Shown here one piece after another: positions 31,920-47,846 of a stretch of DNA of 64,000 bases. Positions within the stretch are counted from its first letter, which is position 1. Every line of letters begins with the position of its first letter. The position numbers and the translations under genes are program-made. The notes beneath the pieces are model-generated. The model was not told the origin of the DNA and did not search any database. It saw nothing but the letters and a program-made list of their open reading frames with translations. The DNA comes from an uncultured Gammaproteobacteria bacterium. GTDB taxonomy: Bacteria > Patescibacteriota > Microgenomatia > UBA12405. Where the stretch lies: contig CAZIZX010000004.1 in assembly GCA_964544275.1 (NCBI GenBank), positions 20,251 to 84,250 of the forward strand, written 5' to 3'.

Positions 31920-31947
31920 AAAAACGTGATATTATAAGGTTTAATAT

Positions 31948-32580: not shown

Positions 32581-32582
32581 CA

Positions 32583-34481
32583 TCAACCGGCACCACCTCC
32601 GCCACCACCTCCGCCTCCTCCGCCACCTCCAGACGATCCTCCCGAGGAACCAACCCCCGAAGCTCCGTAACTAGAACTGGAAACACTAGAAATGCTTGAT
32701 ATGGCATTTGAAATCGAGGAAATACTTGACGAGAAGCTGGTCATATTCCCAGTCGTACTCAAACCCCAATACATCGCTCCCGCCCGCATATCCGTCTCTG
32801 GAAACTTCACTGGCAGCTGACTCAAAACTTTCTCCGACACCCCCAGCACCGTTCCATATACCAAATACTTTTCCCACAAAACAATCGAATCTATAGGGGA
32901 TTCTTTAGTCTTACCATACTCTTTCAAATGCTTTTTAAAAGCCAACCAAGACGCCGCTTCAAAACTACCCTTCTCAGTTCTCTTTTCCCCGTATCTTCTA
33001 AACATCGATGAAAGCATCGCCAACAAAAACGTCATAACTGCCCCCAAGATGGGTATCCACCTAATTGAATCCACTACCATTTGCCTTACTATGTAAACCT
33101 GAACCCAAAGAATCAACCAAAATACCAGATAACCATAGTTTTTTTTCTCGCTGGAAAATTCATTCAGATAACCTTCTTTCAGATTCTTGACCAATACTGT
33201 TTTCGGCAAACTTTCTCTAAAAAATTTCTGACAATAAACCTGGTTACTTCGGCAATAGTTGACAATATCGTCCAGCGCCAGCGTGTCTTTTTCTACCCCA
33301 CCAACCATCACCTTTCTTAAATTTATTCTTTTCAGAAAATTTATCACCCCCTCTTGTACAGATGTTGGACTTTTCTCCCCGAAAATATCTTCAAGATAAT
33401 ACTTGTAATTCTTAAAAATAATCCCTTCCTTCTGGTCACTTCTCACTAAACGATAATATCTATCCTGAATCAGCGACAAAACAGTAGCCGTAAAGGCTTT
33501 AGGAGTCAGATCTTCCCTTCCATTTATCAACTGCTCAATCTGAGCCGGGTCAATATCACTTGGCGGTTCCCACAATCTTCCTGATAAATTCACCTGTGGT
33601 AACGGTGCATCTTTTCCATGTCGCCAGAACTCACGCAACTTTACTACAAAATAACAGGCGGCAAACAAACTCAAACCCAGCGACACCCATACCCACCCCA
33701 TTGCCCGATTGGTCCTACTCTCCAACTGCCTTCTTGTCTCATTGATGAATCCCTCTTCCTCCTGAATAATTTCCTGCCTAGTACCACTTTCCACCGCTCC
33801 GCCACTAAATATCTCTCGTGGTAACAAAATTCTGGCCTCAAAAAAATCTTTTTCCTTTAGACTTCCCAATTCATAGACCACCAAATCATTCTGTGGAATC
33901 GACACTCTACCTGACAATGGTCCGTGTGCATATGCTGTAACCTCATCATCACCCAGACCGGCCGGTAACATTATATTTGCCTTTATATTCTTTTGCGCCA
34001 ACTCCCACTCATTCCCAATCAGTTTCCAATAAACTTCGGCCACATTGTCCCGCAAAGTAACCACATTTACCACATCATAACTTAATTTAAATGTCTTTCT
34101 TTGACCACTGGCTCTATAAAACCACTTAACATAATAAGTATCAAATCTCTCTTCCACATAAAAAAATCCTGGCGTCCTCATAGAATCCAAAGTAGCAGTT
34201 TGACTCCTTTCTACCTGTTCATAACAAGTTACCTCATCACACAACTCAAAACCACTCAAAATATAGGGTGTATTTCTTCCTCCCGATTTCTTTATCTCCT
34301 GGTAAGCAAAGGTATAATCACCATCAAAGTTGTAAACCCTTTCCTCAGTCACACTCATCGACCCATCATCCGTCACCCTTATTCCAATATTTACCTGATC
34401 AATAGAATAAGACCTGGCATGAATACTTCCTGGAAAAAATAAACCTATAGCGAAAACCACCCATAAAAGCCTTTTTACCAT
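32583..34481 (-). CDS. DUF2207-like membrane protein with a C-terminal Ser/Gly-rich tail
   Basis: Signal peptide, a large extracytoplasmic domain, TM helices, and a C-terminus 'SSISSIS...GGSSGGGGGGGGGGGGGAG'. This architecture is recalled for the DUF2207 family. Confidence 0.5.
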   Translation of the reverse strand: MVKRLLWVVFAIGLFFPGSIHARSYSIDQVNIGIRVTDDGSMSVTEERVYNFDGDYTFAYQEIKKSGGRNTPYILSGFELCDEVTCYEQVERSQTATLDSMRTPGFFYVEERFDTYYVKWFYRASGQRKTFKLSYDVVNVVTLRDNVAEVYWKLIGNEWELAQKNIKANIMLPAGLGDDEVTAYAHGPLSGRVSIPQNDLVVYELGSLKEKDFFEARILLPREIFSGGAVESGTRQEIIQEEEGFINETRRQLESRTNRAMGWVWVSLGLSLFAACYFVVKLREFWRHGKDAPLPQVNLSGRLWEPPSDIDPAQIEQLINGREDLTPKAFTATVLSLIQDRYYRLVRSDQKEGIIFKNYKYYLEDIFGEKSPTSVQEGVINFLKRINLRKVMVGGVEKDTLALDDIVNYCRSNQVYCQKFFRESLPKTVLVKNLKEGYLNEFSSEKKNYGYLVFWLILWVQVYIVRQMVVDSIRWIPILGAVMTFLLAMLSSMFRRYGEKRTEKGSFEAASWLAFKKHLKEYGKTKESPIDSIVLWEKYLVYGTVLGVSEKVLSQLPVKFPETDMRAGAMYWGLSTTGNMTSFSSSISSISNAISSISSVSSSSYGASGVGSSGGSSGGGGGGGGGGGGGAG

Positions 34482-34599
34482 TACCCTAATTTATCATCTT
34501 CTCCAAAAAAAATCTGCCCAAACAAGCAGGGGTTTTCTGCGGAGCAGGTGGGTCTGGAACCTTTCTATCCCTATAACACCCTGTCTTATTCTACTCTCT

Positions 34600-34647
34600 C
34601 TTTGTGCCTAAATAAGACAAATAAGACACTATAAAAAAGGAGTGTCT
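34600..34647 (-). terminator. Candidate rho-independent terminator downstream of the histidine-phosphatase gene
   Basis: On the minus strand: stem GAGACACT/AGTGTCTT, loop CCTTTTTTAT, then a T-rich TATTTGTCTTATTT tract. It lies just 3' of the stop at 34679. The region also carries AATAAGACA/TGTCTTATT repeats. Confidence 0.3.
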
Positions 34648-34678
34648 CAAAACCAGTGATCTATTTTGAACTATATAG

Positions 34679-35353
34679 CTACTCAAGACAGTGTGAAGTG
34701 TCATTCCAGCATTGAAGTTTCCATCTTTCATCCTCATAAGTAAAAATACAGACCCCAGTATTGCTTAATCGTAAAAAACTTTTAAGTTTTAAAGATACTC
34801 CAACCGGAAAATTATCCCCCAACAGCATTAATCCAGCCATTAAAGCGATAAAGTTGGCGTGAGACACAACCAAGATATTTTCTTTGTTATGAGACTTTAA
34901 AAACTCTAATGCTGCCAACCCTCGCTTCTTTAAATCTTCAAAATTTTCCTCGTCTGAATAGTGCCAGCTAGGGTCAACTGTATACATTTCACCAATCTTT
35001 TTGAAAATGGCTTTAATTTCTTCATTCTCTTTCGACTTGCCAATCAATTCTTTTGGTTTTCTGGTTTCGGCAAACAGTTCACTAATCTGGACGTTCTCAT
35101 TTATTGCTTTTGCAGTTTGGACCGCCCGGAGGTGCGGACTGGAAACAATTAAATCTAAGTGTGTTTTGGTAAATCTTTTACCAAGTTCTTTGGCTTGTTC
35201 CAAGCCTCGTTGGTTTAGAGGTTCTTCATTGGGCTGGCTGATTTTCTTTTCTAAAGAATCAGTGGAACCATGGCGGACGAAGTATACCTTCATGTTATGA
35301 TCATAGCATATGGAAAATAAGGAGCTATGGGACTTATTAATGACTGAATACAA
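34679..35353 (-). CDS. Histidine phosphatase superfamily (phosphoglycerate-mutase-like) protein
   Basis: The 'MKVYFVRHGSTD' RHG catalytic motif begins at an internal Met (~35296), which is the probable true start. A 'VSHANF' second His motif is present. Confidence 0.65.
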   Translation of the reverse strand: MYSVINKSHSSLFSICYDHNMKVYFVRHGSTDSLEKKISQPNEEPLNQRGLEQAKELGKRFTKTHLDLIVSSPHLRAVQTAKAINENVQISELFAETRKPKELIGKSKENEEIKAIFKKIGEMYTVDPSWHYSDEENFEDLKKRGLAALEFLKSHNKENILVVSHANFIALMAGLMLLGDNFPVGVSLKLKSFLRLSNTGVCIFTYEDERWKLQCWNDTSHCLE

Positions 35354-35981
35354 ACTACTTTTCGAGAACGTGTGGGAGTTTGGGGGTGGTTATGGTTTTC
35401 GCTATCATCACGGAATTCGAGTCATGAAATATTGTCAAAAGATAGCTAAATTTCCTAGATTCAAAGATAAGAATCTAAATATCGACGCCTTATTAACTGC
35501 CGCTTTATTTCATGATATTGGCAAAATTGAAGCAGTTAATGAAAACGGACAATTAGTTTATGGAAATTATGGCGGCATCAGTCACGACGCATTAGGAGCG
35601 CAAGTGGCTCCAAAATATTTAGAAAAATATATTAATGATCAAGAACTTATCGACTTAATATGTTTAATAATTTCTGAGCAGGAAGGTAAAAATACTCCGA
35701 CACGAGTTGAATCAAAAATAATCAAAGATGCCGACAGGTTAGACCACTACGGTGTCCTTCATCTGTGGTGTTCCATCACTCATGCCAATTATCACAAGAA
35801 GAATATTGAAGGCTTACAAGAATTTTGGGAAGGGGAAGAAGGAAGATCGTTATATGAGGCTAACTTCTCCAAATTCTTTTTTCCGGAAGTTAAAAGAATC
35901 GCCGAAAATCGATTTGCTAACTTAACAAAGACTACCGAATTAATGTCTAGTGAGGAAGAAGGTTTGGATATTCTTTTTTAA
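35310..35981 (+). CDS. HD-domain phosphohydrolase
   Basis: 'H...ALFHDIGK...D' HD motif with further conserved His/Asp ('DADRLDHYG'). Confidence 0.7.
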   Translation: MENKELWDLLMTEYKLLFENVWEFGGGYGFRYHHGIRVMKYCQKIAKFPRFKDKNLNIDALLTAALFHDIGKIEAVNENGQLVYGNYGGISHDALGAQVAPKYLEKYINDQELIDLICLIISEQEGKNTPTRVESKIIKDADRLDHYGVLHLWCSITHANYHKKNIEGLQEFWEGEEGRSLYEANFSKFFFPEVKRIAENRFANLTKTTELMSSEEEGLDILF

Positions 35982-37385
35982 TTGACTAAAAAGGAAAAGA
36001 TAATGAAGAATATAGATATAAAAAGTCTTATTAAGGACAATGTAATGTCGGCCGACGAAATCCTGGAATATATTAATGGAAATATCCCCTATGTTGGAAA
36101 AGATTTATCCAATGTAGTTCTATACAAGAATTATAAAGAGTGGAAACAGATTTTAGAGAAATACCCAAAATCGCAAATTATTAATACAAGTAGAAGGAAA
36201 ATATTATTTGATAAAGAAATGCGGAGCCTTGTTATACCAACTAATGAAGGAAATTTTAAAGGTTTCCAATATTCAATACAAGTAAAAGTGTTGAATTATT
36301 TACTGGGCACAAATATTACCTATCAAGAGATTGATCTTCATGATGAAAAAGAATTGTGGAATGAATGGACTTTACGGTTAATCAATAATTGTAAGAACTA
36401 CTCAGTTTCAAACATAACAGGAACTATCGTCGGTAGTATCAATAATACTTATTTTAGATTCAGTAAGTATTTAAATCATCCCATCCTTTGCAATTTGGAT
36501 GGATTCTATAAATCCATATTATCAACGGTGGAATTTAGGAAATATCTTGAGTACAGATTAGATTTAATTTTGGCCGAAGAAGATCTAGTGCTCGGTCGTC
36601 ATCAATTTGATAAAACCTTGTTCATCGATTTTCAACACATTCCTCTTCCTTCAAAAATGGATTATCAAAAATGCGTTGTTGCCAAGGACTATATCTATGA
36701 CCGACCAAATAGACTAGCCAAATTAAATTCAAACGAAAACTTAATTGATTACATTAAAGCTGATTATATTTATTCTCTTGATAGATTGAATCAAACAAAC
36801 TCTATTGATCCTGTATTTCAATCGGAAAATCCTATCATTGTTCGGGATTCATTATTGAGTTATCAGTTAATAAATACCGGGAAGGAATGGCTTATTAATT
36901 TTGACTGGGTTTCATCGAGTCAAATAAATAAAGCCCTGGAAATAATTTCCGGAAACTTTAATATTACCCATTTCTACAATTTTGGAAAATGTGGTTATTT
37001 CGGTAAACGCCTAAAAATCGGCGATTTGGTCAAGCCGATATCTTGTAAAAAGTATCCTGGGACAGGAGGAGAGATTAATTTCATTAATAACATTAGAGTC
37101 GGAACAGAATGCAAGAATTTAACAGTGGACTCGCCCCTTCTCGAGACTCGACCAGGGTTGGTGAATGAAGCAAAAAGCTTCGGATATTCGTCAATAGAAA
37201 TGGAGTTGTTTTATATGCTTAAGGCTCTTAAACCGCATTCCAAAAAATATATTTGTTACTATGTTTCCGATACGCCACTTTCAAATACCAAGTTATCTGT
37301 CAGACTCGACTCTTTAAAGCCTAGGCTGGAAGTTCTCGAAGAAATATTCAATGAAATAGTAAAAAATCATTTTATTGCTCAATAA
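35982..37385 (+). CDS. 467-aa protein with a C-terminal PNP/UDP-phosphorylase-like (nucleosidase) domain; N-terminal ~300 aa unknown
   Basis: 'GKCGYFGKRLKIGDLV' resembles the PNP/MTAN phosphate-binding 'G.AGG...L..GD.V' block. 'SSIEMELFYM' resembles the catalytic 'VEME(S/A)AA' block. The start abuts the HD gene stop. Confidence 0.4.
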   Translation: MTKKEKIMKNIDIKSLIKDNVMSADEILEYINGNIPYVGKDLSNVVLYKNYKEWKQILEKYPKSQIINTSRRKILFDKEMRSLVIPTNEGNFKGFQYSIQVKVLNYLLGTNITYQEIDLHDEKELWNEWTLRLINNCKNYSVSNITGTIVGSINNTYFRFSKYLNHPILCNLDGFYKSILSTVEFRKYLEYRLDLILAEEDLVLGRHQFDKTLFIDFQHIPLPSKMDYQKCVVAKDYIYDRPNRLAKLNSNENLIDYIKADYIYSLDRLNQTNSIDPVFQSENPIIVRDSLLSYQLINTGKEWLINFDWVSSSQINKALEIISGNFNITHFYNFGKCGYFGKRLKIGDLVKPISCKKYPGTGGEINFINNIRVGTECKNLTVDSPLLETRPGLVNEAKSFGYSSIEMELFYMLKALKPHSKKYICYYVSDTPLSNTKLSVRLDSLKPRLEVLEEIFNEIVKNHFIAQ

Positions 37386-37565
37386 ATCTGCAAATGGTAT
37401 ACTACTTTCAAAGCGTTTGAGGTGAAATCCAATCACCAATGCAGATTGGGGTAAAAAACCAATCCGGGGATGCCCGTTATAGCAAATTAAGACTTGGTTG
37501 AGGTGGCACCTCCTGACACGGCCGCAACCCACGATTTGTGTGTCCATTAGTGGTTAATATATTCT
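37384..37565 (+). promoter_or_regulatory. GC-rich structured leader upstream of serS (candidate cis-regulatory RNA, possibly T-box-like)
   Basis: Long-range complementarity AAATCTGCA (37384-37392) / TGCAGATT (37440-37447). Hairpin GGTGA-AATCCAA-TCACC (37421-37437) presents UCC. Stem GATTGG/CCAATC. 'GAGGUGGCACCUCC' (37500-37513) resembles the T-box 'GGUGGNACC' core with N=C. GC content is well above the surroundings. Confidence 0.25.
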
Positions 37566-38810
37566 ATGCTAGATATTAAATTCATTAGGGATAATGTTGA
37601 TATTGTTAAAGAAGGTGTCAGAAATAAAAATTATGACGACCAAATTGTTGATCAATTATTAGAAAAGGATTCGGAAAAAAGAAAAATTCAAACAAAAGTA
37701 GAAACGTTAAAAGGAGAAAAAAATAAACTTGGACCTGAACAGGCAGAACGAGGTAAAGAAATAAAATTAGAGCTAAAAGAATTAGAGGAAAAACTTAAGC
37801 AGGAAGAAGTTTCTTTAAATGATTTGCTAAATGAAATTCCAAATATTCCTTTAAAAGGGGTACCTGTAGGAAAAGGCGAGGAAGGAAACGTGGAGATCAA
37901 AAAATGGGGAGAGCCAAGAAAGTTCGACTTTGTGCCAAACAACCATTTGGATATAGGCAAAAAATTAGGAATATTAGACTTCGAGACAGGTTCTAAGGTT
38001 GCTGGATCACAGTTTTATTATCTTTATGGAGATGGGGCATTACTCGAGTTAGCTCTAGTTCAATATGCATTTAATTTATTATCAAAAGAAGGCTTTACTC
38101 CAGTTATTACTCCAGATGTAGCAAAATCTCGTTATTATCTTGGGACTGGTTATTCACCTCGCGGAAAAGAAGCTCAGACTTACAAAATTGAAGGTGAAGA
38201 TTTAGGTCTAATTGCTACAGCAGAAGTTACTTTAGCTGGCAAACATGCTGACGAAATTCTGTCACAAAGCATTCTTCCAATTAAATATGTAGGGTATTCA
38301 CATTGCTTTAGACGTGAGGCTGGATCCTACGGTAAATATTCAAAAGGTTTGTATAGAGTACATCAATTTACTAAAGTTGAAATGTTCATTTATAGTACCG
38401 CCGAAGACTCAAACAAATATCATGAACAGATTCTCAGCCTAGAAGAAAAAATATATCAAAATTTAGGATTGCCTTATAGAGTGCTTGAAATGTGCTCTGG
38501 GGATTTGGGAGCAATGGCAGCCAGAAAGTTTGATATTGAAGCCTGGATGCCTGGCAGGAATGAATATGGAGAGGTCACTTCTACCTCTAATTGCACGGAT
38601 TACCAGGCTAGGAACTTGAATATTAAATATAAAGCCAAAGACGGATCCACAAAATATGTTCATATGTTAAATGGCACAGCCATAGCAACATCTAGAACAC
38701 CATTGGCAATTTTGGAAAATTATCAAAATGAAGATGGCACTGTAACTATTCCTGAAGTGTTACGACCTATTATGGGTAAGGACAAGATCTTGTTGCCTAA
38801 ATCAATTTAA
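37566..38810 (+). CDS. serS: Seryl-tRNA synthetase
   Basis: N-terminal coiled-coil arm followed by class II motifs ('FRREAGS', 'GRNEYGEVTSTSNCTDYQARNL'). Confidence 0.9.
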   Translation: MLDIKFIRDNVDIVKEGVRNKNYDDQIVDQLLEKDSEKRKIQTKVETLKGEKNKLGPEQAERGKEIKLELKELEEKLKQEEVSLNDLLNEIPNIPLKGVPVGKGEEGNVEIKKWGEPRKFDFVPNNHLDIGKKLGILDFETGSKVAGSQFYYLYGDGALLELALVQYAFNLLSKEGFTPVITPDVAKSRYYLGTGYSPRGKEAQTYKIEGEDLGLIATAEVTLAGKHADEILSQSILPIKYVGYSHCFRREAGSYGKYSKGLYRVHQFTKVEMFIYSTAEDSNKYHEQILSLEEKIYQNLGLPYRVLEMCSGDLGAMAARKFDIEAWMPGRNEYGEVTSTSNCTDYQARNLNIKYKAKDGSTKYVHMLNGTAIATSRTPLAILENYQNEDGTVTIPEVLRPIMGKDKILLPKSI

Positions 38811-39445
38811 TAGCTAATTAGGCTTCTGGCTAATTCTAATGCCTTATCTGCCTTAACAATTCCGTCTTCAAAGTTCTTAGGAACTTCTTTAGTAAAGATT
38901 TCTTTTTGATGTTTTGGATTTACGAATAGAAGGTAGCAGGTATTAGCGTAGGCTCCATTTCTAAAAAACACACCTGGTTGAGTTCCCCATAAAGTGAAAC
39001 CAATTTTCTCAGCAACTTTTATTGCCCCGACATTTGGTTCACGCACATAAGCTCTAATAGTTGATCTATTTATTTGATCGCATGCAAACCAAATGCTAGC
39101 CAAACTCACTAAACTAGCAACTCCTTTGCCCCACCATTCCTGATCCCAGATAGCCAATCCCTGAGTACACGATCCAATATCATCAACTTCATTTAAACTG
39201 ACAATCCCTATTGGCTCGTTTGTATCAGTAGAAGCAATTATCCAAGCATAATCCCGATTTGATTTTGAAATTCTTTCATGCCACTCTTTTTCCATCTCTA
39301 TTGTTGGTGCCCCGATCAAAGTTGTCCATAGATTAGTTTTAAAGTTGGACAAGCCAGTCGAGATCTTCGGTATATCATCCGGAACTGCCGGTCTCAAACA
39401 AATACTTAGCTTCTCATTTTTAATGGAAAAATTCATACCAAACAT
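38807..39445 (-). CDS. GNAT-family N-acetyltransferase (RimJ/RimL-like)
   Basis: Acetyl-CoA motif 'QEWWGKGVASLVSLASI' and the 'VREPNVGAIKVAEKIGF' block. Confidence 0.65.
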   Translation of the reverse strand: MFGMNFSIKNEKLSICLRPAVPDDIPKISTGLSNFKTNLWTTLIGAPTIEMEKEWHERISKSNRDYAWIIASTDTNEPIGIVSLNEVDDIGSCTQGLAIWDQEWWGKGVASLVSLASIWFACDQINRSTIRAYVREPNVGAIKVAEKIGFTLWGTQPGVFFRNGAYANTCYLLFVNPKHQKEIFTKEVPKNFEDGIVKADKALELARSLISY

Positions 39446-39480
39446 AAAAAGTATTATACTACGCTTATTATTTTCAATAA

Positions 39481-40200
39481 ATGTTACATATGATAAAAGC
39501 TGTTATTTTTGATTTAGACGGGACAATTATCACTGAGGACCATATTCAAGAAGGTTTAAAGTATGTCTACCGCAGAAATTCAAAATTTCTTAAAGATATC
39601 AGCCTTTCTGCTTTTTTGTCAGCAAACGAAAAGGCTGTCCAGCATATAATTGAACTCCGTAAAAAAGGCTCAATACTGCTTCATCAAACCGGAATACGGA
39701 TATGGTATGAAGTTTTATCTGACCTAAATATACCGTTGAGTGCTGAACTAGTTTATTCCATGTACAAAGATTTACAGAAGTTTATTTTAGAAAACATTAA
39801 GCTAGATCCTGAATTCATTCCGTTGGTAGAAGAGATAAAAGCAAAGGGGATTAAAATTGGAATACTGTCAAATGGCCTGTTTATTGAGAGATTTGAGCGT
39901 GTAGCCAAAGTAAAAATTATTAATTACATTAATGTGTTGGTTTCTTCTGATATGTTGGGGGTTGAGAAGCCCAATATAAAAATATTTAAGTATATCTGCG
40001 ATTTATTAGAAGTCGATCCCAAGGAAACAGTCTATGTTGGCAATGATTCTTATCAGGACATAAGAGGTGCTCAAAACACTGGAATGATCCCAATATTACT
40101 TGCCAAGAAAGGAGTTGAAGAACAAAAAACACTGGGATCGGTTACGATAGCCAGAAGTTTTGGAGAAATCCAAAAAATTTTAAACAATTTAATACCTTAA
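39481..40200 (+). CDS. HAD-superfamily hydrolase
   Basis: Motif I 'AVIFDLDGTII', 'GILSNG' (motif II region) and 'VGNDSYQDIRGAQNTG' (motif IV). Confidence 0.8.
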   Translation: MLHMIKAVIFDLDGTIITEDHIQEGLKYVYRRNSKFLKDISLSAFLSANEKAVQHIIELRKKGSILLHQTGIRIWYEVLSDLNIPLSAELVYSMYKDLQKFILENIKLDPEFIPLVEEIKAKGIKIGILSNGLFIERFERVAKVKIINYINVLVSSDMLGVEKPNIKIFKYICDLLEVDPKETVYVGNDSYQDIRGAQNTGMIPILLAKKGVEEQKTLGSVTIARSFGEIQKILNNLIP

Positions 40201-40947
40201 TTCATCATCGCAAATACTTATTTTTCCTTTTTCAAAAAAGTCATTAAATTCAATATATAAATTTGATACCACATTCCTCAGTTCATTAACTGAATATGAT
40301 TCCCCTTTGACAAATTTTTTACCCCAGGCTTGAAACGAAGGAAAATTTTGTTTTAGCTCAATCGAATCCTGAACTCGAGTCAAAGTTGTTTTATATTGAT
40401 GCTTATTTATTAAACCTACATAGCTCACTACTTTCCAAAATAAATAATCAGCCAAAGCATACATTCGGACTGTGTCTTCCCGGTCAGATGAATTGAAAAA
40501 TTTGCAAAACGTTTCGTATATATGATTAACGAACTCTTTTTTAAGATAAATACCAAAATCTTGTTTTATTACCTCTTTAAAATGGTTTTTGAATTCACTA
40601 ATTATTAATTCGTTGCCATAAATTACTTTTCCGTCCAAGTAAGTTCCCAGTCGTAATGGCCAAATAAGATCTATTTCACCGATGTCTTTGTAAACCAGAT
40701 TTTTGCCAAGCATTATAGTTTGGTACTTATGACCATTGAAAATTCCTTCAAATGTTTCTTTAAAATCAGGCGATTTCATTATAACTGTCAACTCAACATC
40801 TGAATATTTATCATCCTCATTTCTGCACACCGAGCCATATAAAATTATTGCCTCAATTTCACCTTTATATTTATCTCTAATTAATTCAACGAGACTATTA
40901 ATAAAGTCAACTCTTTCATCGTGTGTTTTTATAAATGGGTAGATCAT
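40189..40947 (-). CDS. ANT(4')/kanamycin-nucleotidyltransferase-like nucleotidyltransferase (Pol-beta superfamily)
   Basis: 'THDERVDFINSLVELIRDKYKGEIEAIILYGSVCRNEDDKYSDVELTVIM' aligns by eye with the KNTase N-terminus ('REERMKIVHEIKERILDKYGDDVKAIGVYGSLGRQTDGPYSDIEMMCVM'). GS...DxD NTase motif. 252 aa. Confidence 0.6.
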   Translation of the reverse strand: MIYPFIKTHDERVDFINSLVELIRDKYKGEIEAIILYGSVCRNEDDKYSDVELTVIMKSPDFKETFEGIFNGHKYQTIMLGKNLVYKDIGEIDLIWPLRLGTYLDGKVIYGNELIISEFKNHFKEVIKQDFGIYLKKEFVNHIYETFCKFFNSSDREDTVRMYALADYLFWKVVSYVGLINKHQYKTTLTRVQDSIELKQNFPSFQAWGKKFVKGESYSVNELRNVVSNLYIEFNDFFEKGKISICDDELRY

Positions 40948-40964
40948 ATTTTGCTGAATAAATA

Positions 40965-42473
40965 TTAGTTTTTAAATTGGGATTGAATAGACTCAATCAA
41001 CTGTTTTCTGATTATCTTGCCGCTACTGGTTCTAGGAAAATTGCTAATCCAAAAAAATCTTTTTGGGATTTTATTGGGGGGTAATTTTTGTTTAAAAACT
41101 TGTGATAGGTAGTTTTCATTTTCTTGGTGGCTAGGCTCATCATTTTCAGCTTTAGTTTCTATACAAAGAATTACTTTTTTAACATTGTCAATTTCAATGC
41201 TCCCTGCGACAACCACTAAAGCAGGATCTTCTCTCTTTACAACATTTTCAATTTCCTGCGGGTAAATATTTTCCCCATTTATCGTAAACATGTCATCTGT
41301 TCTACCTATCAAATATAGGTAGCCATCTTCATCGAGATATCCAGTGTCGTTTGTATGATGATATCCCAATTCATCAGAACACGCTGCAATCTTGCCGTCC
41401 TTAATATAGCCTAATGAGGTATTGTGGCCGGATGTTAATACTTCACCTTTTTGGAAAGGTTCACTTTCAATTTTATTGTTTTCAATATTGAGAATTTTGG
41501 TGTTGCACCCCTTAATCGCTTTTCCTACTGAGTTGGCTTTCCATAAGAAGTATTGTGAGGAGGTATGCAAAGGTGATAACTCAGTTTTGCCATATGCCTG
41601 ATATAAGTGTTTGCCAGTATTTTCATACCATTTCTTCTCAGTGGTAGCAGACAAGTAATCTGCCCCGCATAAAAAATATCTAAAATTTTCTAAACATTTT
41701 TTTACCTTCGCTGGATCTGATAAAAGCAAATCATAAACAGCAGGAATTCCAAATAGTGTATTGGCTTTTGAATCTTCCAGTTTTGCGAAGATTCCATCAG
41801 GGTCGGATAGTTTTATGTTGTCCAAATATAAGGTAGAACCGCAAAATATTGAGGCATTAAATATTACATTCTGCCCATAGCAATGGTAAAAAGGTAAAAA
41901 GCAAAAAATCTTATCTTCTGGGTGTATACCACAGTAGAAAGTAGCCATTTTCCGGTTATAAATTACATTCAAATGAGATAAGGCTACGGCTTTGGGTATA
42001 TTAGTAGTACCCGACGTAAATTGTATTGTCGCCAAATCATTGTATTGCTTATCTTCAATAATTAGGTCGGATTCAAAGTCCAAGCCGATTAACTTATCAA
42101 CTTCAACAATTTTTCTTTTTTGATTTAGTTTTTTGGAATATTCAGAATTTGTAAATATGAATTTTAAATCAAGCTTATTTACAACAGTCTCAATTAATTC
42201 CTCTGGCCAGTTTTGATTCAAAGATACTACGATATTTCCAGTTGCCAGAATTGAATAGTAGGCTACTATCCAGTCTATGCTATTTGGCATAAGTATTGCT
42301 AGCTTGTTGTCTTGGGAATTTTTTAGTGTCTCTCGAATATATTTTGATAAAGCGGCTACTTTAGTAGCTAATTGACCATAAGTAATATTGTCTTTGCTGA
42401 CCATGTCGACAACAGCCACCTCTTTTTCGAGGGTCAGTTTTTGCTCTTCAATTATTAAAGCTATGTTCGGCAT
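40965..42473 (-). CDS. AMP-dependent synthetase/ligase (adenylate-forming enzyme)
   Basis: 'FTSGTTNIPKAV' (A3), 'YGKTE' (A5), 'GYIKDG...DTGYLDEDGYLYLIGRTDDMF' (A7/A8) and the C-terminal 'SSGKIIRK' (A10). Confidence 0.85.
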   Translation of the reverse strand: MPNIALIIEEQKLTLEKEVAVVDMVSKDNITYGQLATKVAALSKYIRETLKNSQDNKLAILMPNSIDWIVAYYSILATGNIVVSLNQNWPEELIETVVNKLDLKFIFTNSEYSKKLNQKRKIVEVDKLIGLDFESDLIIEDKQYNDLATIQFTSGTTNIPKAVALSHLNVIYNRKMATFYCGIHPEDKIFCFLPFYHCYGQNVIFNASIFCGSTLYLDNIKLSDPDGIFAKLEDSKANTLFGIPAVYDLLLSDPAKVKKCLENFRYFLCGADYLSATTEKKWYENTGKHLYQAYGKTELSPLHTSSQYFLWKANSVGKAIKGCNTKILNIENNKIESEPFQKGEVLTSGHNTSLGYIKDGKIAACSDELGYHHTNDTGYLDEDGYLYLIGRTDDMFTINGENIYPQEIENVVKREDPALVVVAGSIEIDNVKKVILCIETKAENDEPSHQENENYLSQVFKQKLPPNKIPKRFFWISNFPRTSSGKIIRKQLIESIQSQFKN

Positions 42474-42486
42474 ATTATAAAGGTTA

Positions 42487-43122
42487 TTAATTAATTATTA
42501 TTTGAAGTATCTTTGATTTTTGATAACAATCCTCAATAGAATCTGGTTGCCACCAACCTTGGAGCTCGCTATTAGGTATCAATACTTTGTCTGCACAGGG
42601 AATCCTACCCGGACTAAATCTCCAACCCATAGGCCATAAGTCAACAGATTGATCAGGTTTGCCTTCGCGAACTTGTAGCGGCATACTGCCACTAAACTTT
42701 AAACCGAGCCGTGATTCGATAGCTAAATTTATAGCTACATGGTGGAACTGGTTTGGTAATCCCGGCACACCGACTAATAGCCTTGGTTTAAAAGCCTCCT
42801 CTCTTGTTACCAGATCTCTGTCGTAAACATAACTGGCATTTTTGATTACCCACCGGCTTTCTTCAGGATGTGATTGAAAGAACGATGTGTACCCTTCAAC
42901 ATATACTTCTTCAAATACCTGGTCAAAATCAACAACTCGGCCATTCGAATATCTCCATCTAACTCTCCAGTTATTTAATCCGTATTTCTCTGTCAATTCG
43001 GCTTCAATTCTGTCTCTATCTCTCCCAAAGAAGCCAATATTTTCTATAGTTTCCCATGCTTCGACATCTGACATTCTGTAATAATAACACCAAATCCATA
43101 TTATTGAATGTTTAGTTGGCAA
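42487..43122 (-). CDS. Hypothetical protein (211 aa)
   Basis: Protein-like composition, co-directional and tightly spaced with the AMP-ligase. No motif recognised. The probable start is the internal 'MSDVEAW'. Confidence 0.3.
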   Translation of the reverse strand: MPTKHSIIWIWCYYYRMSDVEAWETIENIGFFGRDRDRIEAELTEKYGLNNWRVRWRYSNGRVVDFDQVFEEVYVEGYTSFFQSHPEESRWVIKNASYVYDRDLVTREEAFKPRLLVGVPGLPNQFHHVAINLAIESRLGLKFSGSMPLQVREGKPDQSVDLWPMGWRFSPGRIPCADKVLIPNSELQGWWQPDSIEDCYQKSKILQIIIN

Positions 43123-43181
43123 GATCCACTATAATCATAGTACTACATAAAGTCTTCGTCATATACTGTCAAGCAATGGCT

Positions 43182-44033
43182 TTATTTTATATCTTTATCC
43201 AGGACGACTAGGTGTGGAATTGATAATTTTATCAAGTCATCTTTCAGTTTAGATAATCCGACATAAATGCCTGGGTGACATTCACTCATTTTCTTTTTGC
43301 TTCCACAAACACATTTTTTGTAACCTTTGATATTTTTCCTCTTTTTGAGCATTTGCTGAAGAGTGAACTTTTCTTCAGACCGAATTACCATCGAAAACAC
43401 TTTCTCCGTTTTCTCTCGTGAATGAGAATGTGTCTCCCCGTATTTCTCGATAATCCCTAATACGCCGTGAGCATATTCTCCCCAAGGCCAGTGTCGGTAC
43501 CTTTGGTAAAAAGTCTGCTCGTAAAAAAATGGAATAACCATCTGGTTAATGAATTCACTCAACTTAAATCCTGAGGGGAAGTATTCAACTTCAGCCCCCG
43601 CCACACACAGACAAACTGCCCCGTTTGGATTAACGTGAAGATCCGGCAGGTCAATTAAGTTACCCTTGGCGAAGCTCTCAATTTTTTTATCGACTTCAAA
43701 CACATGTGGCAGTTTTGAGGATGGAGTAGAGGTGAATGTCATTTTTATCTGGTATTCATCCTCAACATAGACTCCATTGCTTTGCCCGCCCGCCTGTGGT
43801 CCTATTAAAAACGAGTTATCTGAATTGTTGTAGCTCATAGCAAATTTCAAATTGCCTTGAATTTCATCAACCCCATCAACCCGTCTATCCGCAGTCAATA
43901 GAGGATGGTATTTTTTGAGCCACCCTAGATCTTTGATGGCGAGCCTTAGGTCAAAAGGTTCTCCACGGTTTGGGCGGTGAATGTCCGACATAGACGTTTT
44001 GGGTAAACTGCTTATTATCCTCAAGCTCTTCAT
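43182..44033 (-). CDS. Hypothetical protein (283 aa) with a SEC-C-like metal-binding motif
   Basis: 'KKCVCGSKKKMSECHPG' matches the SEC-C 'CxCGSxKKxKxCC/H' motif. The rest is unassigned. Confidence 0.35.
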   Translation of the reverse strand: MKSLRIISSLPKTSMSDIHRPNRGEPFDLRLAIKDLGWLKKYHPLLTADRRVDGVDEIQGNLKFAMSYNNSDNSFLIGPQAGGQSNGVYVEDEYQIKMTFTSTPSSKLPHVFEVDKKIESFAKGNLIDLPDLHVNPNGAVCLCVAGAEVEYFPSGFKLSEFINQMVIPFFYEQTFYQRYRHWPWGEYAHGVLGIIEKYGETHSHSREKTEKVFSMVIRSEEKFTLQQMLKKRKNIKGYKKCVCGSKKKMSECHPGIYVGLSKLKDDLIKLSIPHLVVLDKDIK

Positions 44034-44289
44034 TGAATATCATTTTCCAATAAGAAAGCGATCCCTCAATATTTCCATCGGATTCCTTATCGACGGCATT
44101 GGAGATTATTTCGTGAAGAGACTGAATTTTTCCCTTGATCGATTCTCTTGTCCAATCGTCCCAATCATCAAGGAAAAATCACCCGAAGAGAGGATTAGAG
44201 GCTATGTGATCCATGTCCTAAAAACTGGATTCTCGGAAGAAAAACAGGATATATTGACACTATTTAAGACAAGATTTATTTTAGAAGAC

Positions 44290-44332
44290 AAGCAAATAAG
44301 TATTTCCCCGAGGCCAGCCTCTGGCCTCGGGG
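44290..44332 (-). terminator. Strong hairpin terminator (perfect 12-bp GC-rich stem CCCCGAGGCCAG/CTGGCCTCGGGG, 3-nt loop) downstream of the HNH gene
   Basis: The stem is at 44306-44332, 15 nt past the HNH stop on the minus strand, followed by a T-rich tract (TTATTTGCTTGTCTTC). Confidence 0.45.
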
Positions 44333-44346
44333 AATGAAAGCCAACT

Positions 44347-44622
44347 TTAAATCAAGTTGCCACCTTTTACACTGTTATTGTGCCAGTTAAGAGGCTGAAG
44401 ATTAGAATAATGGTCCGATCCACCCTTTGAAACCGGGATGATATGATCAATTTCCCAACCATATTCCGAATTTCGGTTGCCATAATCGACAAATCGCATC
44501 GCAGTACCAAATTTGTCAAAACGGTATTCATTACTCACATCAATGCCGTCTCTGGTGGCTGGACCACCTTTGTTCCAAACAAATAATTTAACTTGATCAG
44601 TAATACTAATTTGATTTAACAT
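44347..44622 (-). CDS. Small HNH endonuclease
   Basis: 'EIDHIIPVSKGGSDHYSNLQPLNWHNN' is the canonical HNH motif (DH...N...H/N). 91 aa. Confidence 0.8.
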   Translation of the reverse strand: MLNQISITDQVKLFVWNKGGPATRDGIDVSNEYRFDKFGTAMRFVDYGNRNSEYGWEIDHIIPVSKGGSDHYSNLQPLNWHNNSVKGGNLI

Positions 44623-44685
44623 TTTTTAATTAATAATTATAAATTGCAAAATCTTCCAGAACCGATACAATGAATGTTGAAGTGG

Positions 44686-44727
44686 AAAAGACGTCTGAGA
44701 AGATTTTATCTTAGGCGTCTTTTTTAT
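44686..44727 (-). terminator. Candidate terminator 3' of tRNA-Asp
   Basis: AAAAGACG...CGTCTTTT outer stem with an inner AAGAT/ATCTT stem, flanked by T/A runs. It lies ~280 nt downstream of the tRNA-Asp 3' end on the minus strand. Confidence 0.35.
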
Positions 44728-45004
44728 TGGGTTAATTCGGGCATGATTATATTAAACCTATAATTACGCCAGATATATTTGAACCTCATATCTAGCGTTC
44801 GAAGATATAATATTCACTACCACTAGTGTGTGTCAACTGCAAATTAATAGTACAAAGATGATCAAAGTTCCGGTAAATACCGGACGCATCCCCTCAAGGA
44901 CATGGGTCTGGAACGAAATTGAAGCTAAACAGGAACAAATAGAAAAATGGTCAAGGGAGTAGCATCACCTATATTACATGGAACTATCGGGAACAAGCAA
45001 ACAT

Positions 45005-45081
45005 TGGCGGGCCCAATGGGATTCGAACCCACGATCTTCCGCGTGACAGGCGGATGTGCTAGACCGCTGCACCATGGGCCC
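45005..45081 (-). tRNA. tRNA-Asp(GTC), CCA encoded
   Basis: The reverse complement folds as a cloverleaf: acceptor GGGCCCA/TGGGCCC, anticodon loop CTGTCAC, T-loop TTCGAAT, discriminator G plus CCA. Confidence 0.85.
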
Positions 45082-45218
45082 TGCTACAAAAAGTACATGA
45101 TACTATACCAAACCTCCCTCAAGCTGACAACCAGTAGGAAAATACTAAATGCCAAGCCTTAGACGCAAACTTAAACCCGTTCATGGCCTTTATTTAAAAA
45201 ATTTTCTATAATTAACAC

Positions 45219-46256
45219 ATGTACCTCGAAAAAGAAAATTACACCAATAGTGAGATTGGAGAATTGCTGGAAAATATCGCTACCGCCTACGAAATCAAGA
45301 ACAAAAATTTTTTCAGAATTATTTCCTACCAAAATGCTGCTGAAACCATCTTTAATCAAACCCGACCAGTCCAAAAATTATGGCAAAAAGACAAATCTCT
45401 TCTTGACCAATTACCAGGAATTGGCGAAAATATCCTAGAAAAATTAGATTATCTCTTCACTCACCACGATCTTCACCCGGCTATCAAAAAAGCATTTTCC
45501 AACATCCACCCGGTTGTCTTCACTTTTACCAAAATCACCGGAGTTGGCCCCAAAACTGCTCACAAGCTGACTAAAAACCTTGAGTTTAAGGAAGACCCCG
45601 AAGATGCCCTGGAACAATTGGTTGAGTACGCCCAGCAAGAAAAAATTCGCCACTTTCCTGATTTCGGCCAACGTTCAGAGGAACTCATCCTAGAAAACAC
45701 TCTTAACTTTATGGGGCGGCAAAAAAGAATGAGCTTAAGTCAAGCCCAAAAAATTTCCGACAAACTTATTAAATATCTGAAGAAAGAATTTCCAGACACC
45801 GAGTTTATCCCGCTTGGCTCCCTCCGAAGAAAAGCCTCGTCTGTCGGAGATATCGATATCGCCGTCAAAAGTACTGAAACTGAAAAAATTCTGGAGCATT
45901 TTATTAATTATCCCGACAATATCCAAACAATTACCCAAGGTCCCAAAAAAGCCTCCATCAAAATCAGAAACGATATCAGAGTCGATTTAATGGTCCAACC
46001 ACCCCAAACCTTTGGTTCTCTTCTGCAACATTTTACCGGCTCCCGTCAACACAACATCCTGCTTCGGCGCTATGCCCAAAACTTGGGCTACAGCCTGTCC
46101 GAGTACGGTATCAAAGACTTGCGTACCGACAAAATTAACACTTTTGACAATGAAACCGATTTTTATAACTTCCTCAAACTCTGTTACATTGAGCCGGAAA
46201 ATAGAATAGGGGAATATGAAATCGAAGAAGCTCAAAAATGTTATACTAAAAAATAA
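45219..46256 (+). CDS. DNA polymerase X family (pol-beta-like core, no PHP domain)
   Basis: HhH 'LPGIGENILEKL'. NTase motif 'GSLRRKASSVGDIDIAV'. 345 aa, corresponding to the pol-beta 8-kDa, fingers, palm and thumb regions. Confidence 0.7.
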   Translation: MYLEKENYTNSEIGELLENIATAYEIKNKNFFRIISYQNAAETIFNQTRPVQKLWQKDKSLLDQLPGIGENILEKLDYLFTHHDLHPAIKKAFSNIHPVVFTFTKITGVGPKTAHKLTKNLEFKEDPEDALEQLVEYAQQEKIRHFPDFGQRSEELILENTLNFMGRQKRMSLSQAQKISDKLIKYLKKEFPDTEFIPLGSLRRKASSVGDIDIAVKSTETEKILEHFINYPDNIQTITQGPKKASIKIRNDIRVDLMVQPPQTFGSLLQHFTGSRQHNILLRRYAQNLGYSLSEYGIKDLRTDKINTFDNETDFYNFLKLCYIEPENRIGEYEIEEAQKCYTKK

Positions 46257-46278
46257 TAATTAATTTTTAAAACCAAAG

Positions 46279-46860
46279 ATGACTATCGTAATTATCGCTA
46301 TTTTAGCTTTGTTAGTACTTTTCGTCATCGGTTTTTTCAACCGAATGAAAACTTATCAAGTCAGAATTAAGGCTTCGGTCCAGGAAATTGGTAACCAGCT
46401 AAAACGCCAAGCTAATCTTATTCCTAATTTAGTCGATTCTGCCAAAGGTTACATGAAGCACGAAAAAGGGATATTTGATAACTTAACCGACGCCCGAAAA
46501 ATGATTGCTCAGGCCGTCGATACCAACGACACCAAAAAACTTGATCAGTCGCAAGAAATGATCGGCAAAGCTCTCGGAGCTCTTCGTGTAATTGTCGAAA
46601 GTAATCCTGAAATAAAAGCCTCCGAAGTTGTCTCCAACCTAATGAATGAATTGCGTGATACCTCCGATAAAATCATGTATGCCCGTCGCACTCTCATCGA
46701 TTTAACCGCTGACTACAACACTGCCATCCACACCATCCCTGGTATTTGGTTAGCTTCACTGTTCGGTTTCCAAGAAGAAAAAGGTCTACAAACAGCCTTG
46801 GAAGGTGAACATATCCAAGTATCGGAATCTGACACCAAAAACCCCACTGTCAGCCTTTAA
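46279..46860 (+). CDS. lemA: LemA family protein
   Basis: N-terminal TM helix plus 'QVRIKASVQEIGNQLKRQANLIPNLV' and 'RRTLIDLTADYNTAI', typical of LemA. Confidence 0.85.
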   Translation: MTIVIIAILALLVLFVIGFFNRMKTYQVRIKASVQEIGNQLKRQANLIPNLVDSAKGYMKHEKGIFDNLTDARKMIAQAVDTNDTKKLDQSQEMIGKALGALRVIVESNPEIKASEVVSNLMNELRDTSDKIMYARRTLIDLTADYNTAIHTIPGIWLASLFGFQEEKGLQTALEGEHIQVSESDTKNPTVSL

Positions 46861-47749
46861 CTCTATGCTCAACGTCTACGAACAGGTATCAAGCAACAAG
46901 CTTAGGTCCAATGTAATTATGCTTCTTTTTGTCACCTTCATCGTTGGTGTCGCCTATGCCATTTCTTATGCTTTCGAATTGGGTACACCTTTCATAATTT
47001 TCGCCTTTATCTTCTCCATAGTTTCTGCCGGAATCAGTTATCTGTGGGGCGACAAGATCGTACTCGGCCTCAACAAAGCTCGACCGGCTTCCCGTCAGGA
47101 ATTTTTCGATTTTTACACCATTACCGAGAATTTAAGCTTAGGCCAAGGAACTCCCATGCCCCAAATTTATGTCATCGACAGCCCCGCCATGAACGCCTTT
47201 GCCACTGGCCGTGATCCCAAAAATTCTGTTATTTGTGCCACCACCGGCCTCCTTCAAAAACTGAACCGAACCCAGCTTGAGGGCGTAATTGCTCACGAAT
47301 TGTCCCATATCCAAAACTACGACATCCGTCTTATGACCATCGTCAGCATCCTCATCGGTTCGCTTTCAATTCTTATCAATGTCGCTTCAAGAAGCATGTT
47401 TTACCGCCCTCGCGGCCGGGACAGAAACAATTCTAGTGGAATTTTCATGATTGTCGGCTTAGTTCTAATAATATTTGCCCCCATAATTGCTCAGTTAATT
47501 CAACTGGCTATTTCCCGAAGGAGGGAATATTTAGCCGACGCTTCTGGGGTTAAACTAACTCGTCAACCCCAAGGATTAATTGAAGCCCTAAAAATTATTG
47601 CCGCTGACTCAAATCCTTTCAAAACGGCCTCCACTGCCACTGCTTCACTTTACATCAAAAACCCGTTTAAAGGCGACAAAATCGCCAGTCTTTTTTCTAC
47701 CCACCCGCCCATCGAAGAAAGAATCAAAACACTGGAACAAATGCTTTAA
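46805..47749 (+). CDS. HtpX-like M48 zinc metalloprotease
   Basis: HExxH 'IAHELSHIQNYD'. Four TM helices. The likely true start is the internal Met at ~46865, just after the lemA stop. Confidence 0.75.
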   Translation: MNISKYRNLTPKTPLSAFNSMLNVYEQVSSNKLRSNVIMLLFVTFIVGVAYAISYAFELGTPFIIFAFIFSIVSAGISYLWGDKIVLGLNKARPASRQEFFDFYTITENLSLGQGTPMPQIYVIDSPAMNAFATGRDPKNSVICATTGLLQKLNRTQLEGVIAHELSHIQNYDIRLMTIVSILIGSLSILINVASRSMFYRPRGRDRNNSSGIFMIVGLVLIIFAPIIAQLIQLAISRRREYLADASGVKLTRQPQGLIEALKIIAADSNPFKTASTATASLYIKNPFKGDKIASLFSTHPPIEERIKTLEQML

Positions 47750-47846
47750 ATCTAGACCATTTTAGTTTATATTAAAGTAACCCTGCCTCAAATATAGTGC
47801 CCCACTGTATCTTGAAACAATTACCTTAATCCTGCAAAATTAAACC

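Follow-up and report, generated by a model that had tools for sequence, protein, structure and literature searches.

A skew-free block carrying serS, probably a recently inserted genomic island, beside tRNA-Asp of a Microgenomates-type Patescibacterium

We analysed a 64,000-nucleotide stretch of the metagenomic contig CAZIZX010000004.1 (positions 20,251 to 84,250; hereafter the window, 64 kb), in which a block of about 10 kb that carries the seryl-tRNA synthetase (SerRS) gene serS lacks the strong G/C strand bias of the surrounding genes and occupies a site beside tRNA-Asp that is empty in three relatives. The explanation we favour, with moderate confidence, is that the block is a non-autonomous genomic island that was inserted recently at tRNA-Asp and that relocates or is exchanged repeatedly, which would leave it without the skew of its host. 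To our knowledge, almost no mobile-element biology has been described in this phylum (Patescibacteria).

Compositional contrast between the block and its flanks

All named homologues of SerRS and of the flanking DNA polymerase PolX are Patescibacteria (Woesebacteria, Shapirobacteria, Amesbacteria, 'Microgenomates group' or 'Patescibacteria group'), and the host is a Microgenomates-type Patescibacterium with a G/C strand disparity like that of the order UBA1400, a likeness of composition pattern alone. In this Microgenomates order, one strand contains 29.8% C and 15.0% G throughout the chromosome, with a monotonic cumulative skew and no clear AT trend, a disparity tentatively ascribed to unidirectional replication (Kadnikov et al. 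2020, PMC7143001); that report mentions neither islands nor horizontal transfer. The window flanks share with UBA1400 a C content roughly twice that of G on one strand, little bulk AT disparity, independence from gene orientation and, over the 64 kb outside the block, a monotonic cumulative skew, but whereas the published curves describe whole chromosomes, the block is a local exception to such a pattern. The same strand-bound disparity, regardless of gene direction, was found in related contigs (L003, L012, L016 and L022). About 70% of the window genes lie on the C-rich strand.

Read in plus-strand coordinates, the third codon positions of all 45 flank genes (45/45) had a GC skew of -0.22 to -0.77, whichever strand was coding (mean -0.51, standard deviation (sd) 0.09); on the coding strand the values were -0.4 to -0.7 for plus-strand and +0.4 to +0.8 for minus-strand flank genes. 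The sign of the skew is thus fixed in plus coordinates for genes of both strands, so that the bias is tied to the chromosome strand, whichever way a gene is transcribed. The 11 block genes (34679 to 44622) instead ranged from -0.21 to +0.18 (mean 0.00, sd 0.12; Mann-Whitney U = 0, P = 3.5e-7). The GC content of third codon positions (GC3) was about 0.40-0.48 in the flanks and 0.25-0.33 in most block genes, the exceptions within the block being the histidine-phosphatase gene (0.39) and a gene for a protein resembling ubiquitin-conjugating (E2) enzymes (0.43). At four-fold degenerate sites, the plus strand of the flanks was composed of A.21, C.39, G.10 and T.30, and that of the block of A.33, C.17, G.16 and T.34, with a GC content (GC4) of.49 and.33, respectively.

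The contrast was equally visible in the raw sequence. Measured in 2-kb windows, GC skew stayed between -0.1 and -0.43 over nearly all of the 64 kb and moved to between +0.12 and -0.12 at ~35-45 kb, where overall GC dropped to 0.33-0.39, and the cumulative skew fell monotonically with a plateau solely at the block. A two-change-point fit to raw G-C counts placed the limits of the block at 35051-45060, and synteny with relatives placed them at 34414-45003. A first-pass annotation, made from the letters of the window, had called the block compositionally atypical, expected a break in GC3 and skew at its edges and placed it against the 3' side of the minus-strand tRNA-Asp, all of which the measurements bear out; its further suggestion that the block genes resemble minus-strand genes such as the DUF2207 gene has to be given up, since the latter have a strong positive coding skew and the block genes have none.

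A second region of weak skew and low GC3 lies at window 53067-57059, terminating at the 3' side of the minus-strand tRNA-Glu (57165-57241). It contains a 1095-amino-acid (aa) CheB-CheR-PAS-histidine kinase fusion (skew -0.13, GC3 0.33), which has no counterpart in either of two related genomes introduced below, R1 and R3, and a 119-aa receiver-like protein, at whose position R1 has only a response regulator of 29% identity. The four-fold composition of the region (A.37, C.17, G.15, T.31) matches the serS block.

Insertion at the 3' end of tRNA-Asp

Relatives were found through PolX, with 85% identity to the window protein in R3 (contigs L015 and L022), 81% in R1 (L011-L013) and 57% in the more distant L003. 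All three were colinear with the window on both sides of the block, in the common gene order tRNA-Thr, tRNA-Gly, LysM, HTH, NDK, GK, DUF2207, then tRNA-Asp, PolX, LemA, M48, DnaE and L19, and the gap between DUF2207 and tRNA-Asp measured only ~120 bp. In R1, L012 2715-9705 aligned to window 27440-34413 and L012 9826-16538 to window 45004-51742, and the alignment of L022 was interrupted at the block in the same way; homology to R1, R3 and L003 alike breaks off at window 34413 and is regained at 45004. The window thus holds an excess of ~10.5 kb at ~34512/34540-45004. Because the relatives are colinear but empty at this site, the block was inserted, and its site of insertion is the tRNA-Asp 3' end.

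The junctions fit this picture at nucleotide level. In the relatives, the ~120 bp after the DUF2207 start hold a T-run and a terminator hairpin and lead directly to the tRNA-Asp 3' end. In the window, DUF2207 is the gene at which colinearity with the relatives ends ahead of the insertion; its start and the adjacent T-run at the left junction are homologous to the sequence downstream of tRNA-Asp in R1 and R3, although the hairpin itself differs in sequence from that of R1/R3. On the right, homology restarts at the tRNA-Asp 3' end (L012 9826 = window 45004), and the window, R1 and R3 do not differ in the tRNA body. We also considered a 'CCA swap' at this junction, CCA being encoded in the window tRNA-Asp and not in that of R1/R3; as this is a single-base difference (TTGG versus TTTG), we give it little weight.

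An artefact of assembly or binning, in which a contig of another organism was joined through repeated tRNA-Asp and border sequences, is very improbable. It could draw on the Logan assembly of sample SRR8925753, in which the block forms a separate contig of 10,538 bp (L001 = window 34546-45083, the block through the entire tRNA-Asp) that ends in the border element described below and in tRNA-Asp, both repeat-like in that metagenome. The host-to-element junction, however, is unique sequence and was recovered independently in two samples: L024 (Logan, SRR8925753) is 100% identical, spans the host-side junction and reaches 31 nt into the border element, and L023 (Logan, another sample) is 99.8% identical over the same junction and stops within the first few bases of the element. 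On the other side, L001 leads out of unique block sequence and across all of tRNA-Asp, and L002 carries on from it into PolX with an overlap of 30 nt (k-1). The Logan contigs break at the border element because this element is repeated in the metagenome. Since independent contigs cover the junctions, a mis-join of the window at the block appears unlikely; moreover, the window DUF2207 is not followed by tRNA-Asp, so something was inserted there, and four other assemblies have contigs (102, 70, 55 and 16.7 kb) in which skew-free serS islands are contiguous with strongly skewed flanks.

The same island in related genomes

The window and two relatives, whose copies differ from it in site and may differ in orientation, share a core of genes: serS, a GNAT acetyltransferase, a HAD-family hydrolase and a KNTase-type nucleotidyltransferase in this order, together with the histidine phosphatase (His_Phos), the HD-domain phosphohydrolase and, in R1, the AMP-dependent ligase. 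In R1, the island contigs (L004/L005/L006) come from the same samples as the R1 PolX locus, and the island lies between DUF2726/thioredoxin genes and PDDEXK/type I restriction-modification genes. Its flanks had a GC3 skew of -0.3 to -0.65, and most of its genes -0.08 to +0.07 at a GC3 of ~0.28; more skew was seen in two genes on the NUDIX side, in the GNAT gene and in a host-like gene of the PeptMA2 type (-0.53). In R2 (L008/L009), an Mrr-like gene and tRNA-Ser(GCT) border the island; its flanks there have skews of +0.4 to +0.55, of opposite polarity relative to serS, and the island itself is near zero skew with a GC3 of about 0.28. The end that carries the ~200-aa gene faces the 3' side of a minus-strand tRNA, as it does in the window. 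The skew-free island was thus found in at least three genomes and five independent assemblies (Logan contigs of 102 kb and 55 kb, JGI 70 kb, ENA 16.7 kb and NCBI 87 kb), and in all of these genomes the absence of skew belongs to the island itself.

The island end in R2 lies ~690 bp from the 3' side of tRNA-Ser(GCT) (L008 15663-15748, minus strand), next to which stand tRNAs Arg and Ser; the position of serS beside tRNA-Ser may be a coincidence or may reflect a preference for tRNA-proximal sites. Within the R1 island, the host-type gene is Peptidase_MA_2-like (L004 8436-9095, skew -0.53) and is followed by ~900 bp free of open reading frames (ORFs) that still align to the 3' part of the 467-aa gene of the window; the R1 island thus appears to be a mosaic. 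In the JGI contig L007, L004 16865-18531, reverse-complemented, is joined at 1647-1667 to the part of L004 that begins at 8524, the two overlapping by 21 A/T-rich nucleotides (L004 8524-8544 and 16865-16885). We considered this join as an inversion polymorphism and rejected it: the overlap is of low complexity, and the two unrelated genes that it breaks are intact in three other assemblies, so that L007 is a probable chimera.

Divergence and time of arrival

Between the window and R1, amino-acid identity was 73.5% for block proteins and 74.7% for flank proteins, and identity at four-fold sites was 0.364 and 0.352, respectively, against 0.29-0.30 expected by chance. By these measures the block and its flanks are about equally diverged with silent sites nearly saturated, and the block is not foreign DNA or a distant xenologue. 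With silent sites near saturation, a one-off acquisition by the common ancestor would long since show the host skew. Four-fold skew in the block and the flanks was -0.02 versus -0.60 in the window, -0.20 versus -0.31 to -0.50 in R1, and -0.07 versus +0.74 in R2. The first-pass annotation had proposed an acquired island with serS as a possible xenologue. The island part holds in so far as the block is a discrete insertion at a site empty in three relatives, and recent as judged by synonymous change; an origin in a distant lineage does not, given the equal divergence of block and flanks and the named top matches of SerRS, all of which are Patescibacteria or Microgenomates. SerRS accordingly groups with the host lineage and the internal gene order of the block is conserved in relatives, two of the observations that had been named as speaking against acquisition, whereas its location is not syntenic.

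To place the arrival on a scale of substitutions, we fitted a minimal mutation model to the flank, consisting of an F81 baseline (piG = piC =.39) and an additional plus-strand loss of G, at about 2 baseline units for G>T and about 1 for G>A. Starting from the observed island composition, the model reached a skew of -0.15 at 0.13, -0.25 at 0.25 and -0.41 at 0.6 substitutions per four-fold site. Island skews near zero, together with this modelled decay, therefore suggest that all three copies are recent in their present orientation, and under the model the window copy would be about ten times younger than the split between the window and R1. A variant with symmetric exposure, in which the loss of G is shared equally between the strands, predicts G = C =.156 and A = T =.344, to be compared with C.170, G.163, A.329 and T.338 in the window block, and it also fits R1; this modelled fit is supportive only.

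The islands of R1 and R2 are much closer to each other. Their cores differed by ~0.31 substitutions per four-fold site (identity 0.75; SerRS 96.6%), with different flanks and opposite orientations, and the SerRS proteins P0002-P0005 form a tight group of 96-97% mutual identity. By comparison, PolX of the window, R1 and R3 showed 81-85% mutual identity, and the ABC-F protein that flanks the R2 island had a best non-self match of 78% in a collection of 5.8 billion proteins that includes the assemblies of R1; no ABC-F match was identifiable as the R1 orthologue. These figures suggest, as likely, an exchange of the island core between diverged hosts, R1 and R2.

A conserved border element

At the left edge of the block, a non-coding element of ~110 nt (Table 1) was 91-93% identical (approximately) to L004 4332-4455, L016 8938-9067 and L017 3354-3466, and 89.5% identical over 86 nt to L018 501-586, the flank of which is too short to judge its context. 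Three of these metagenome loci were found by a 23-nt core of the element. Coding DNA of the window and the R1 island is only ~70% identical, compared with ~93% for the element at the left end. Island edges carried the element in four distinct contexts (the window, L004/L005, L016 and L017; five loci, two of them from one genome), and the switch to zero skew coincided with it in the window, L004 and L016; in L016, skew moved from -0.3 to ~0 exactly at the element. The skew-free island of L016 (9127-12241, 3 kb) contains a GNAT gene related to that of R1 and genes of 583 and 235 aa but not serS, and the element is therefore not tied to serS. L016 holds a further partial copy at 8454-8519, ~480 bp from the first. 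No further copy was found by nhmmer in the 64-kb window.

Read on the minus strand, the element ends in ...GGTTCCAGACCCACCTGCTCCGC and resembles the T-arm and acceptor 3' half of a tRNA. Its end (...AAAGGTTCCAGACCCACCTGCTCCGC) matches that of tRNA-Asp (...GTGGGTTCGAATCCCATTGGGCCCGC) at 15/26 positions in register. With respect to the host terminator, it occupies the same register as the tRNA-Asp 3' end; beyond it lie a hairpin and then the T-run and DUF2207 start known from downstream of tRNA-Asp in R1 and R3. As read from the sequence, the distal attachment (att) site of an island that targets a tRNA would be expected to have this geometry, but the element does not copy the tRNA end. A 12-nt direct repeat, TGGGTCTGGAAC, has exactly two exact copies in the 64 kb, which bracket the block; with one mismatch allowed there were 3 matches against 0.19 expected from shuffles.

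The element was also examined as an RNA. Neither ARAGORN nor Rfam (E <= 1 and E <= 5) identified it as a tRNA, tmRNA or known RNA, the consensus folds of either strand showed no covariation, and the single-sequence fold energy was unremarkable (z = -1.2). The minus strand has a promoter-like site (TTCACA-16-TATAGT, 34697-34670) on one side of the element and a terminator hairpin with a T8 run (34529-34514) on the other, and the region 34505-34697 could give rise to an outward-reading small RNA of ~130-150 nt. We thus regard the element as a candidate recombination site, small RNA, or both.

Proposed explanation and alternatives

We propose that the island belongs to a small clade of Microgenomates in which one C-rich and one G-poor strand run the length of the chromosome, and that it consists of a conserved core (the 467-aa gene, serS, GNAT, HAD, KNTase and the ~200-aa gene), variable accessory ends and the terminal element of ~110 nt. 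In the window lineage it entered between the tRNA-Asp 3' end and the tRNA-Asp terminator, and related genomes have it elsewhere and in either orientation. Its place and orientation would keep changing, through movement within a genome or exchange between related genomes, so that its stay on any one strand would be too short to take up the G-depleting mutation pressure of the host and its synonymous sites would remain symmetric and AT-rich. Movement would thus be recurrent; the border element with its tRNA-like end would be the putative recombination site, acted upon by a recombinase presumably encoded elsewhere, and the island serS would be the only copy of the genome.

Several results weigh against this proposal. 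Searches of the block ORFs with Pfam, NCBIfam, PHROGs and PADLOC found no integrase, transposase or serine/tyrosine recombinase. The exact repeat of the tRNA-Asp 3' end that the first-pass annotation had proposed to look for near 34.5 kb was not found, and in its place are the partial resemblance of the element and the separate 12-nt repeat; inverted repeats flanking the block were looked for and none was seen, and nhmmer found no border element at the R2 locus. The only rearrangement seen within a population, L007 versus L004, probably arose as a chimera during assembly. For R2, the symmetric-exposure model breaks down (GC4 predicted.16, observed.26), and the block composition is nearly equal in all three genomes despite their differing flanks, which would also fit a common outside source.

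That last point also speaks for the strongest competing account, which we consider possible yet clearly less probable: that each skewed genome received the block separately and recently from donors outside the clade (AT-rich Patescibacteria of weak skew, or an unsampled episome), and that serS was replaced or supplemented. Ordinary Microgenomates, for example L021, do have a composition like the block's (GC3 ~0.3, no skew); the block composition hardly differs between the window, R1 and R2, and the second weak-skew region with its CheB-CheR-histidine kinase gene shares it. The E2-like and HNH genes, specific to the window, show that the block takes up foreign genes, and the gap between ABC-F (at most 78% to any relative) and SerRS (96.6% between R1 and R2) suggests exchange between diverged hosts. 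The sole close relatives of the block that we found (SerRS 85-86%, shared gene order) are, however, the islands of R1 and R2, which themselves sit in skewed genomes; SerRS matches at 77-81% lie on contigs under 2 kb, with gene context out of view. The more distant SerRS relatives (72-73%; L019 and L021), whose genomes have weak skew, keep serS in a greA-aspS/lysS housekeeping context without the GNAT-HAD-KNTase genes. Outside donors would further require replacement of serS in each of three lineages, and they do not account for the equal divergence of block and flank between the window and R1. Viral relatives of the block or border element were not found: searches for a viral reservoir with two DNA patterns gave no match, and the best viral SerRS was 43% identical.

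A more specific form of the island explanation is offered tentatively: a cassette lacking a recombinase may have captured the only serS of the clade, and a host-encoded or unrecognised recombinase may shuttle it between tRNA-proximal sites and related genomes by means of an element that mimics the tRNA 3' end, often enough to escape the strand-specific mutation pressure over an interval in which every synonymous site was replaced. If this were true, skew-free islands would constitute a built-in residence-time clock in genomes with one-way strand bias.

Doubtful, in our judgement, is the notion that the block is an accessory cluster for small-molecule modification or resistance in which serS is a second, self-protective copy, the canonical gene lying elsewhere. 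Extra aminoacyl-tRNA synthetase (aaRS) copies do occur in antibiotic gene clusters, the AMP-ligase, GNAT, nucleotidyltransferase, HAD and phosphatase genes look like tailoring or resistance enzymes, serS, GNAT, HAD and KNTase are kept together in three genomes, and distant relatives hold serS in a housekeeping context. On the other hand, genomes of ~1 Mb in this group usually have one copy per aaRS, and the 68-73% identity of the island SerRS to the single annotated SerRS of many Microgenomates metagenome-assembled genomes (MAGs) is at the ordinary level of orthologues. No second SerRS could be assigned to the R1 or window genome among the SerRS matches, a weak negative.

The least credible, along with the assembly artefact, is the recent inversion that the first-pass annotation had entertained, by which native DNA was flipped once and its reversed skew is decaying through zero: island orientation relative to the strand disparity does differ between R1 and the window on the one hand and R2 on the other, and L007 is readable as an inversion variant of L004, but the skew is 0.00 +/- 0.12 and not about +0.5, all three lineages would have to be caught at the zero crossing, inversion alone does not lower GC3, the empty sites in relatives indicate insertion and contradict a flip in place, flanking inverted repeats are absent, and the L007 junction breaks two genes and is probably chimeric.

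Comparison with known systems and implications

The block resembles tRNA-adjacent islands of the pathogenicity-island type, which are mobilized by integrases, in its insertion exactly at a tRNA 3' end, in the emptiness of the site in close relatives, in its atypical composition and accessory cargo, and in the distal tRNA-3'-like sequence that lies in tRNA orientation beside the displaced host terminator; in the R2 copy, the same island end abuts the 3' side of another tRNA (tRNA-Ser). Unlike such islands, the block has no integrase or excisionase gene and no exact direct repeat of the tRNA 3' end (15/26), carries a housekeeping aaRS and has a terminal element that is conserved among islands at unrelated sites, and the R1 copy adjoins no tRNA. 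Like other GC-skew anomalies discussed under compositional amelioration, the local break in skew marks DNA of differing history, and the decay towards host skew can serve as a clock; the difference is that copies in three lineages with saturated synonymous divergence are all still unameliorated, and a single event therefore cannot explain the skew-free state. As with mobile or duplicated aaRS genes (resistance copies, antibiotic clusters and plasmids), an aaRS travels here with accessory enzymes, whereas this SerRS looks like the ordinary orthologue of the clade and nothing in the data pointed to a second copy or an antibiotic pathway.

These observations bear on the one-way, chromosome-long bias of the host clade, which is unexplained: local exceptions show it to be acquired by DNA in the course of residence, not intrinsic to the sequence, and the model supplies a rate scale on which visible skew is expected in an island within ~0.1-0.3 synonymous substitutions per site. 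They would also point to a pool of fast-turnover islands in very small and supposedly static symbiont genomes. Should the genome have no other serS, a gene essential for translation would be carried on mobile DNA, an unusual route to the retention of an island. The border element is a concrete candidate for a new recombination site or small RNA.

Gene content of the block

The features of the block and its boundaries are listed in Table 1. Domain searches agreed with most of the gene content read earlier from the sequence (HD, SerRS, GNAT, HAD, KNTase_C/ANT(4')-like, AMP-binding and HNH, all by Pfam), the exception being the 467-aa protein, whose 'PNP-like' label is sub-threshold. For this gene, the R2 orthologue is 58% identical, and R1 has no ORF at the position and shows nucleotide similarity only. 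By its domains and ortholog-level similarity, the block SerRS is a canonical bacterial serS orthologue; its closest relatives are 85-86% identical, and identity to many Microgenomates MAGs was 68-86% over 99-100% of its length. The His_Phos protein has weak similarity to phosphoserine phosphatase and phosphoglycerate mutase models, with all NCBIfam matches below cut-off, and the KNTase scored 81.6 bits with NCBIfam ANT_4p_I, far under the cut-off of 350. The three block proteins without family assignment were searched for a recombinase with Pfam at E <= 5, NCBIfam, PHROGs, PADLOC and PDB sequence searches, and none was detected; a single-sequence AlphaFold model of the 195-aa protein was unusable (pLDDT 33).

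Table 1. Features of the serS block and its boundaries (positions in the window)
Feature	Position	Strand	Remarks
DUF2207 membrane protein, left host flank	32583..34481	-	Pfam DUF2207, DUF2207_C; GC3 skew -0.58 (plus coordinates)
Left junction zone, T-run and small terminator-like hairpin (34514-34529)	34503..34537	-	
Conserved non-coding border element, ~110 nt	34538..34660		sharp start at GCGGAG
12-nt direct repeat TGGGTCTGGAAC, left copy	34549..34560	+	
Histidine-phosphatase family protein	34679..35353	-	Pfam His_Phos_1 E = 1e-30; GC3 skew +0.06
HD-domain phosphohydrolase	35310..35981	+	Pfam HD E = 9e-13; 82% identical to R1 block orthologue
467-aa protein, no assigned family	35982..37385	+	directly upstream of serS; PNP_UDP_1 merely E = 0.09
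serS, seryl-tRNA synthetase, 414 aa	37566..38810	+	Pfam Seryl_tRNA_N, tRNA-synt_2b; GC3 0.25, skew +0.09
GNAT acetyltransferase, core gene	38807..39445	-	Pfam Acetyltransf_3; also in R1 and R2 blocks
HAD-family hydrolase, core gene	39481..40200	+	Pfam HAD_2, Hydrolase; also in R1 and R2
KNTase / ANT(4')-like nucleotidyltransferase, core gene	40189..40947	-	Pfam KNTase_C
AMP-dependent ligase (acyl/aryl-CoA ligase family)	40965..42473	-	Pfam AMP-binding E = 3e-61; in R1, not R2
195-211-aa protein, without family match	42487..43122	-	72% identical to last gene of R2 block
E2-like (ubiquitin-conjugating-type) protein, 283 aa	43182..44033	-	window-specific accessory; PADLOC E2, E = 2.6e-34
Small HNH endonuclease, 91 aa	44347..44622	-	window-specific, beside E2-like gene; Pfam HNH E = 7e-8; PHROG endonuclease matches
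12-nt direct repeat TGGGTCTGGAAC, right copy	44903..44914	+	90 bp from tRNA 3' end
tRNA-Asp(GTC), right boundary	45005..45081	-	ARAGORN, Rfam; block on its 3' side
Family-X DNA polymerase (PolX), right host flank	45219..46256	+	Pfam; skew -0.48

The translation of the E2-like gene shows a SEC-C-like cysteine motif at the C-terminus, CVCGSKKKMSECHP (CxCGSKKKxxxCH). The PADLOC 'E2' models describe defence systems with ubiquitin-like conjugation, and the gene stands without an E1 or JAB partner nearby. Just downstream of the HNH gene, window 44304-44334 contains a perfect 14-bp palindrome (TTCCCCGAGGCCAG / CTGGCCTCGGGGAA), which is probably the terminator of that gene; a 118-aa plus-strand ORF that overlaps it (43981-44337) is probably spurious.

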